A stretch of 64,000 bases of DNA from Bacteroidota bacterium. Lineage in GTDB: Bacteria > Bacteroidota > Bacteroidia > AKYH767-A > 2013-40CM-41-45. Each line of letters opens with the position of its first letter. The first letter of the stretch is position 1. The stretch lies in NCBI GenBank assembly GCA_031427625.1, contig JANPNV010000168.1:3898-67897 (forward strand), given 5' to 3'. Under the pieces are notes generated by a model. The model searched no databases. It was not told the origin of the DNA and saw only the letters and a list, made by a program, of their open reading frames with translations. Shown in pieces: positions 48,958 through 49,314 of the stretch. The translations under genes and the position numbers were made by a program.

Positions 48958-49314
48958 ATGAAGTACTTTCTGATTTTATTTTCTGTTTTTACTTCCTGTT
49001 CCAAAGAGCAATTTAATCAGCAATTAATAAAACCTATGGGATGTGATAGTATCGCTTTTACTTTCGAAAAAAACATCAAACCAATTTTTACATCCAACTG
49101 TAATTTTATTGAATGTCATGCAACAAGTGGCATTGGTAGTTTCGATTTTACTCAATATGCAGTAGTTGCAGATCGCATTAAAGCAGGAACAATGGAGTAT
49201 CGTCTAGAGCTTCCGATTGACGATCCTCAACACATGCCTGACGATATGCGTTTAAGTCCTTGTGATTTTTACAAGATTAAAATGTGGATCCGTCAGGGGT
49301 ATCCGGAAAAATAG
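48958..49314 (+). CDS. Small Cys/His lipoprotein with CX4CH motif (PSCyt-like segment)
   Basis: Lipoprotein signal MKYFLILFSVFTSC. IKPIFTSNCNFIECHATSG resembles the planctomycete-cytochrome-C-like pattern (hydrophobic-PIL...C..CH) but with four residues between the Cys pair. A second Cys lies at SPCDFYK. Confidence 0.5.
   Translation: MKYFLILFSVFTSCSKEQFNQQLIKPMGCDSIAFTFEKNIKPIFTSNCNFIECHATSGIGSFDFTQYAVVADRIKAGTMEYRLELPIDDPQHMPDDMRLSPCDFYKIKMWIRQGYPEK

Follow-up and report, generated by a model that had tools for sequence, protein, structure and literature searches.

A predicted lipid-anchored c-type cytochrome with a CX4CH motif linked to YceI and DUF5777 genes in Bacteroidota

Lipocalins of the YceI family bind polyisoprenoids and ubiquinone-8 (PMC9113575). 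A widely conserved linkage, at times a fusion, joins the proteobacterial YceI gene bcnA to the cytochrome b561 gene lcoA; bcnA or lcoA mutants build up lipid peroxyl radicals, and the authors of that work proposed that the cytochrome re-reduces the quinone held in the lipocalin (PMC9113575). In Cbp2D, an extracellular electron-transfer protein of Cellvibrio, a YceI-like domain is joined to domains of c-type cytochromes (PMC8981238). Here we report on a gene for a small lipoprotein with a CX4CH motif, followed by genes for a YceI-family lipocalin and a DUF5777 outer-membrane beta-barrel protein, in a stretch of 64,000 nucleotides from a Bacteroidota bacterium (contig JANPNV010000168.1 of assembly GCA_031427625.1, positions 3,898 to 67,897), hereafter called the window. 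We assign a probability of roughly 0.6 to the reading that this protein is a lipid-anchored monohaem c-type cytochrome, acting as the one-electron carrier of a Bacteroidota carrier-YceI-DUF5777 module with a redox or antioxidant role in the envelope. The reading is based on homology, conserved residues, the predicted fold, gene linkage, and the displacement of the gene by those of other redox carriers.

The protein (MKYFLILFSVFTSCSKEQ...IKPIFTSNCNFIECHATSG...HMP...SPCDFYKIKMWIRQGYPEK, taken from the listing of open reading frames (ORFs) and the raw sequence) begins with a short basic and hydrophobic leader (MKYF...FTSC14). Cys14 showed no variation in an alignment of 75 homologues and was nearly invariant in one of 48, which together with the leader fits a lipoprotein signal peptide. 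The hydrophobic leader and the lipobox cysteine predict export to the periplasm, as expected of a class I cytochrome c. Three alignments, of 8, 48 and 75 homologues with identities as low as about 20%, showed C48, C53 and H54 of the CX4CH motif without exception. Hence, the motif is no chance occurrence. On these points the preliminary description of the locus, which had noted a small lipoprotein with CX4CH and had made its interpretation depend on conserved Cys and His residues, was borne out. P94 was likewise invariant in the alignments of 48 and 75 single-domain members, in which M93, C14, C29, W110 and G114 were either invariant or at least 90% conserved.

In class I cytochromes c a canonical CXXCH follows an N-terminal helix, the proximal His comes directly after the second Cys, and the distal Met lies 40-60 residues further on. 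The motif of the present protein is C48-x4-C53-H54 instead of CXXCH; judged from their positions, H54 and M93-P94 are the predicted proximal and distal ligands. An AlphaFold2 model with a predicted local distance difference test score (pLDDT) of 87 consists of four helices, of which one (residues 36-47) precedes the motif, and predicts the all-alpha class I fold with N- and C-terminal helices. C29 was invariant in one of the two larger family alignments and nearly invariant in the other. In some homologues its partner cysteine is found elsewhere, either in the C-terminal helix ('NCW') or at the C-terminus ('GCD'), and this movable position suggests a structural bond rather than a catalytic cysteine. 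A precedent for the conserved C29/C102 pair is provided by FoxE, whose haems have His/Met ligation and whose C-terminus is held down by a disulfide (PMC10654088).

The family comprised 906 representatives at E<=1e-3 in a 50%-identity library, with single-domain lipoproteins of about 120 amino acids and strings of 2-12 tandem copies as its architectures. Within the window, no second domain of this kind was found, and CXXCH was absent from every ORF of at least 100 amino acids. Compared with the PDB, the family profile matched cytochrome c6 over its full length (3dmi, E=0.0027; 3dr0 and 1a2s more weakly, the range being E=0.0027-0.045) as well as the N-terminal part of PccH from Geobacter (4rlr, E=0.0034). 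The CXXCH of c6 and PccH was aligned to the CX4CH with a gap of two residues, and the 'MP' of c6 fell onto M93-P94. A fold-level comparison with the PDB gave PccH as the best and FoxE as the second-best structural match. Among 48 single-domain members, weak individual Pfam matches were obtained to Cytochrome_CBB3 (8 members), Cytochrom_C (6), PccH (6) and PSCyt1 (2), and Haem_bd was also weakly matched by individual family members.

The two- and multi-domain relatives carry PSCyt1 (PF07635) together with PF13442; multi-domain relatives are annotated as c-type cytochrome proteins, and the name given to one of the relatives is c-type cytochrome domain-containing protein. Their CX4CH domains exceed the PSCyt1 gathering threshold of 22 bits: residues 56-108 of P0160 scored 53.5 bits, P0158 reached 36.5 and P0024 81 bits, and the CX4CH-type domain of P0041 passed likewise, these relatives together spanning 36-86 bits. 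The match begins inside the motif, at profile position 3. The lipoprotein itself could be assigned neither to PSCyt1 nor to PccH (PF22297, gathering threshold 24.4 bits); to the latter, 6 of the 48 single-domain homologues had weak matches, the best with E=0.018. The idea of a variant haem motif in a PSCyt-like context, put forward in the preliminary description, is thus supported at the level of the family by those relatives whose CX4CH domains lie above the PSCyt1 threshold. Judged from the sequences, the resemblance to cytochrome c and PSCyt is genuine homology at family level, and the lipoprotein is PSCyt-like, yet no demonstrable member of PSCyt1. Furthermore, P0023, P0090 and P0150 are fusions in which 4-6 copies of the domain follow an N-terminal cytochrome b561 of the prokaryotic type (PF01292, the CybB/YceJ/LcoA family), which ties the domain family to quinone-reactive membrane cytochromes.

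The only NCBIfam match of the lipoprotein was to the LIC11213 family lipoprotein (NF047812; 118 profile positions), over residues 26-78. With 18.7 bits (E=0.0015) it stayed below the cut-off of 100 bits, and the protein is not a member of that family. The LIC11213 lipoprotein of Leptospira may be a distant relative with the same small-lipoprotein fold.

Several differences separate the present protein from its closest described counterparts. PccH of Geobacter sulfurreducens (4RLR) is a soluble monohaem periplasmic cytochrome c with a canonical CXXCH, and its gene is linked to neither YceI nor DUF5777, whereas here a CX4CH is present, a lipid anchor is predicted and the gene is linked to both. 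The PSCyt1 domains of the relatives share a downstream '...MPP...L...I..WI..GA.N' pattern. The lipoprotein is nearer, in overall sequence, to the 'CD...C' subtype flanked by a disulfide; relatives with this subtype match Cytochrome_CBB3 and PccH there, not PSCyt1. PSCyt1 usually forms part of large proteins of PSCyt1-PSCyt2-PSD architecture in Planctomycetes and Verrucomicrobia, in contrast to the 118-residue lipoprotein described here. With class I cytochromes of the c6/c551 type the protein has in common the haem motif after an N-terminal helix, the distal Met-Pro and the C-terminal helix; it differs from them by two more residues between the cysteines, the lipid anchor, a further pair of cysteines and a physiological setting that is unrelated to theirs.

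The number of residues between the two motif cysteines varies within the family. In 347 domain instances from 157 homologues we counted 175 CX4CH, 152 CXXCH, 13 CX5CH, one CX3CH and one CX6CH, and CX4CH and CXXCH domains are often mixed in one polypeptide. The orthologues defined by gene position upstream of DUF5777 have 2 (19 proteins), 3 (3), 4 (37), 5 (2), 6 (2), 7 (5) or 8 (1) intervening residues. Hence, the CX4 spacing, the conservation of which was to be checked according to the preliminary description, is not a fixed feature. In a multiple alignment of these orthologues both cysteines and the histidine nevertheless each fall into one column, only the loop between the cysteines varying in length, and a Met-Pro lies 29-50 residues past the CH in 66 of 67 orthologues, in every spacing class. 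The retention of His and Met at any loop length is to be expected of a haem site but not of a degenerate domain. A haem-motif loop of 2-8 residues among orthologues in the same genomic slot appears to be undescribed so far.

CX4CH is an established covalent haem motif, an example being haem 3 of hydrazine dehydrogenase (PMC6469936), and a recent survey documents CX2CH, CX3CH, CX4CH, CX11CH, CX15CH and CX17CH as haem motifs (PMC11492766). Haem 3 of hydrazine dehydrogenase belongs to a multihaem protein of unrelated fold, with bis-His ligation and a fixed spacing, whereas the family described here is predicted to be monohaem with His/Met ligation and spacings of 2-8. Cytochrome c3 is another CX4CH haem carrier. 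The claim of the preliminary description that CX3CH and CX4CH need dedicated lyases does not agree with what is known: such lyases are documented for CX15CH and CXXCK, and we know of no report that one is needed for the CX4CH haems of Desulfovibrio c3 and hydrazine dehydrogenase (haem 3) or for CX3CH. Tolerance of the Ccm system towards CX3CH and CX4CH was reportedly observed by Allen et al. in 2009.

To survey the module in other genomes, DUF5777 was used as anchor in one genome per GTDB species. This yielded 80 loci, all from Bacteroidota (among them Flavobacteriales, Chitinophagales, Cytophagales, Pedobacter, Pontibacter and Arcticibacter); linkage was counted in the 74 whose upstream sequence extends over 1.2 kb or more. 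A cytochrome-like ORF was found upstream of DUF5777 on the same strand in 64 of these 74 loci, typically in the order cytochrome-YceI-DUF5777; YceI lay between the two in most of the 80 loci. Even four homologues of 22-27% identity are encoded directly upstream of DUF5777, with YceI between or not. By comparison, only 7 of the 74 loci, all from the closest relatives, have HupE and the tetratricopeptide repeat (TPR) gene upstream of the cytochrome. Thus, the HupE neighbourhood is a lineage-specific juxtaposition, and the conserved partners are YceI and DUF5777, not the HupE/UreJ permease. The preliminary description correctly recognised the adjacent HupE/UreJ gene, but its proposal of a redox or metal-chaperone partner of this permease was not upheld.

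The cytochrome was missing from 10 loci, and in 4 of these the slot was filled by a cupredoxin or a Rieske protein. In L056 (2997-3401), L077 (2928-3368) and L078 (2900-3370) a cupredoxin lipoprotein of about 135 amino acids, belonging to the plastocyanin/azurin family (Pfam Copper-bind, above threshold, E about 4e-7), is encoded directly upstream of YceI. In L063 (2904-3350) the slot holds a Rieske [2Fe-2S] protein with a twin-arginine translocation (Tat) signal (E=1e-13). In these loci non-orthologous genes for other one-electron carriers have taken the place of the cytochrome gene. That one slot accepts three carriers of different chemistry argues for electron transfer as its function and against metal delivery or scaffolding. 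The near-obligate linkage to YceI and DUF5777, with substitution by cupredoxin or Rieske proteins, appears not to have been described before.

Further genes were noticed next to these loci. Upstream of the cupredoxin-YceI-DUF5777 version lies a gene (L056:1382-2428, L077:1441-2439, L078:1368-2444) that, going by the DDxxD-type motifs of its translation, resembles one for a polyprenyl-diphosphate synthase, which is intriguing because YceI binds polyisoprenoids; a gene for a repeat-containing lipoprotein is also found just upstream in these three loci. In distant relatives, namely L010 (4232-4975), L011 (3580-4887) and L012 (3731-4438), genes for multi-domain PSCyt1-like cytochromes of 235-435 amino acids closely precede that of the single-domain lipoprotein; this suggests that electrons reach the module by a longer periplasmic route. 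Near the four homologues of 22-27% identity, too, such multi-domain proteins are often encoded.

In the model derived from these data the lipoprotein would be exported via Sec and lipid-anchored. We infer a covalently bound haem, with thioether bonds to C48 and C53, H54 as proximal and M93 as distal iron ligand, and the two extra residues between the cysteines bulging out as a loop; a C29-C102 disulfide would probably clamp the N- and C-terminal segments. The cytochrome could then exchange electrons with a quinone or isoprenoid bound to YceI in the periplasm, at or near the DUF5777 barrel of the outer membrane. Membrane location, YceI ligand, direction of electron flow and physiological role are proposed in this way, the role being likened to that of the cytochrome b561 (LcoA)-YceI (BcnA) system.

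Both systems would couple a haem redox protein genetically to a YceI lipocalin, and the linkage to YceI is found here as well. The haem partner in LcoA-BcnA is an inner-membrane b561, in contrast to the predicted c-type lipoprotein of the present module, which contains no b561. The DUF5777 barrel is an additional third component of the proposed Bacteroidota module. A system of the LcoA-BcnA type would be induced by oxidative or antibiotic stress and protect from lipid peroxidation; as to induction, the locus shows only the ECF sigma/anti-sigma pair upstream. Cbp2D of Cellvibrio japonicus, with a YceI-like X158 domain and c-type X183 and X132 domains, resembles the module by domain makeup, combining a quinone-binding with small cytochrome modules. 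It is, however, a single secreted multidomain protein with a CBM2 and canonical CXXCH motifs that targets lytic polysaccharide monooxygenases, whereas here separate genes and a CX4CH are found.

DUF5777 is predicted to form a barrel of 12 strands of the KdgM/NalP/COG4313 class. Its invariant polar residues comprise H66, H80, H186, H247 and E241/E243 in 'EIETGGH'; these are unusual for a passive porin and suggest a catalytic site or a site for a cofactor or ligand. The closest 120 DUF5777 homologues included no cytochrome fusion, so that no Rosetta-stone evidence comes from the DUF5777 side.

A more far-reaching version of the model is offered tentatively, as a possibility we regard as rather doubtful: that the module is an outer-envelope system with interchangeable carriers which recycles YceI-bound quinone or isoprenoid, and that haem is bound in every member from CX2CH to CX8CH. 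If the first part were true, the module would be a previously undescribed outer-membrane counterpart of the LcoA-BcnA antioxidant system. If the second part held, the range of haem motifs would be extended to n=5-8, and the System II synthase of Bacteroidota would have to be largely indifferent to loop length.

Other explanations were weighed against the cytochrome reading. Cys, His and Met are classical ligands of soft metals, the HupE_UreJ_2 gene lies 102 nucleotides upstream on the same strand, and variation in loop length would matter less to a metal site than to a haem site; the protein could therefore be a metallochaperone or metal-binding lipoprotein with a cytochrome-like fold that supplies Cu, Ni or Co via Cys-Cys-His-Met to HupE/UreJ. 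We consider this very improbable and rejected the role as metal chaperone or HupE partner on linkage and residue pattern. The rarity of the upstream HupE gene, which is absent from relatives of 60-63% identity, argues against it, and one would not expect a Rieske 2Fe-2S protein or a blue-copper electron carrier to take over the slot of a metallochaperone. A helix followed by C...CH, an MP about 40 residues on and a C-terminal amphipathic helix with Trp form the class I signature that aligns with c6 and PccH, and CXXCH and CX4CH domains alternate in cytochromes recognised by Pfam.

Likewise improbable, if a little less so, is a degenerate domain that has lost its cofactor and serves YceI and DUF5777 in a structural or scaffold role, with C48 and C53 joined in a disulfide. 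The absence of a canonical CXXCH, spacings of up to 8 that are without precedent in the searched literature, and the failure of the query with all cytochrome hidden Markov models would agree with such a domain. In that case H54 and M93-P94 would be expected to have drifted; instead they show little or no variation in hundreds of divergent sequences of all spacing classes. Moreover, CX4CH is established as a haem motif and the CX4CH domains of relatives lie well above the PSCyt1 threshold. A variant of the redox reading that we disfavour and regard as unlikely, mainly with a view to the small barrel and the YceI partner, assigns the cytochrome to an extracellular electron-transfer conduit of the Cyc2/FoxE/PccH type, with electrons passing through or beside the DUF5777 barrel to or from external Fe, Mn or humic substances instead of an antioxidant quinone cycle. 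It draws on the best structural matches, PccH and the iron oxidase FoxE, on the linkage to an outer-membrane barrel, and on the multi-domain strings, which, some being fused to b561, could provide an electrical connection from the inner membrane into the periplasm; PccH is needed for electron uptake from electrodes (PMC13591261). A 12-stranded barrel is, however, much smaller than MtrB, PioB or Cyc2, and its class is more typical of channels for small molecules or hydrophobic substrates. A role of YceI in metal respiration is not known, the window encodes no multihaem partner, and the hosts include ordinary aerobic heterotrophs of soil and freshwater (Pedobacter, Pontibacter, Chitinophaga). 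Described iron oxidation involves either a cytochrome fused to or paired with a large porin conduit (Cyc2) or the dihaem FoxE encoded in the foxEYZ operon, in contrast to the monohaem protein and 12-stranded KdgM/NalP-like barrel predicted here, and no equivalents of FoxY or FoxZ were found at the locus.

A number of points weigh against the reading as a cytochrome of a redox module. The query alone matched no Pfam family at E<=1 and no PDB sequence, a Foldseek search of the PDB returned no significant match, and the E-values of the family profile against the PDB are modest (about 1e-3). The searched literature contained no mention of CX5CH to CX8CH as haem motifs; spacings of 5-8 imply either an unusually tolerant lyase or loss of haem in some members. 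No Ccs or Ccm maturation gene is encoded in the 64-kb window, and the maturation capacity of this genome is assumed from Bacteroidota in general. The displacement evidence consists of 4 loci only, the DUF5777 model is of moderate confidence (pLDDT 70), and gene linkage and analogy are the foundation of the functional model. Literature searches found no paper on DUF5777 and no experimental work on any member of the lipoprotein family.

The class I cytochrome fold and the CX4CH motif are already known kinds, while a Bacteroidota lipoprotein family with this fold that is missed by Pfam appears to be undescribed so far. If the cytochrome reading is true, it provides the first functional handle on DUF5777 and on the unnamed lipoprotein family, both of which are widespread in Bacteroidota, and independent evidence for a redox link of YceI lipocalins. 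The functions of YceI and DUF5777 and the substrate tolerance of System II haem attachment would become directly testable. A natural series from CX2CH to CX8CH in one fold and slot would be an unusually clean system for studying substrate recognition by the System II synthase. Automated annotation of cytochromes that relies on CXXCH only would systematically miss such proteins. In addition, the linkage data correct a tempting mis-annotation as a partner of the HupE/UreJ permease.

Features of the lipoprotein locus and its upstream genes (window coordinates)
Feature	Position	Strand	Basis or remark
Extracytoplasmic function (ECF) sigma factor	42748-43317	+	Pfam
RskA_C-type anti-sigma factor	43307-44110	+	Pfam
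DUF4331 protein with type IX secretion system (T9SS) tail	44635-46779	+	Pfam
Terminator-like hairpin	46792-46821		Strong, 12-bp stem; 3' of DUF4331
TPR protein	46839-48164	+	Pfam
HupE_UreJ_2 protein	48131-48856	+	Pfam (PF13795, E=1.9e-42)
Lipoprotein gene, predicted monohaem c-type cytochrome of PccH/PSCyt1-like fold	48958-49314	+	118 amino acids, ATG start
Signal peptide with lipobox Cys C14 (...FTSC) at its end	48958-48999	+	Sequence reading; conservation of C14
C29, probable structural-disulfide partner of C102	49042-49044	+	Conservation; bond inferred
CX4CH motif C48-N-F-I-E-C53-H54, predicted thioether cysteines and proximal His ligand	49099-49119	+	Conservation; alignment to c6/PccH
M93-P94, predicted distal (sixth) haem ligand motif	49234-49239	+	Conservation; aligned to 'MP' of c6
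C102, probable disulfide partner of C29	49261-49263	+	Nearly invariant (75-homologue alignment)
YceI-family lipocalin, conserved partner	49321-49878	+	PF04264, E=3.3e-12
DUF5777 outer-membrane beta-barrel, conserved partner	49878-50756	+	Start codon overlaps YceI stop

The genes of the module are closely spaced, with 7 nucleotides between the cytochrome and YceI and an overlap of 1 nucleotide between YceI and DUF5777. A cassette of DUF4331 (T9SS), TPR and HupE_UreJ_2 genes (44635-48856, + strand) is located between the anti-sigma factor gene and the cytochrome module. In the loci L005-L008, whose cytochromes share 60-63% identity with the present one, the sigma factor, anti-sigma factor, cytochrome, YceI and DUF5777 genes follow each other without intervening genes, and this cassette is absent. 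An anti-sigma factor gene was present in the upstream flank of 3-4 kb in 13 of the 80 loci, a count of presence in the flank irrespective of adjacency to the cytochrome. In the closest lineages the module is probably regulated by the ECF sigma/anti-sigma pair. The oxidative-stress sigma factor EcfO of Bacteroides was considered as a lead and dropped, as nothing tied it to the locus.

Scans for sigma-70 promoters and terminators remained at background level. Two exact copies of the Bacteroidota -7 motif TAnnTTTG occur in the gap between HupE and the cytochrome, at 48867-48874 and 48939-48946. Across the window the motif was found 69 times versus 79 expected; since it is not enriched, the two copies in the gap hint only weakly at an internal promoter.

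Genes for T9SS cargo are unusually dense in the window (1907-5620, 6794-8848 on the minus strand, 9494-10969, 11587-13887, 44635-46779, 50934-52349 and 61523-63598), the marks being Por_Secre_tail or CHU_C tails, PKD repeats and DUF7619. Contigs nearly identical to the window belong to metagenome-assembled genomes of Bacteroidota. The module is flanked by genes for a Fe/Mn superoxide dismutase (35706-36311), a HemN-like radical-SAM protein (40273-41397) and the uroporphyrinogen-III synthase HemD (53907-54755), which remain syntenic in L005 and L007. These three genes fit a neighbourhood related to haem and oxidative stress, although this may be a coincidence.

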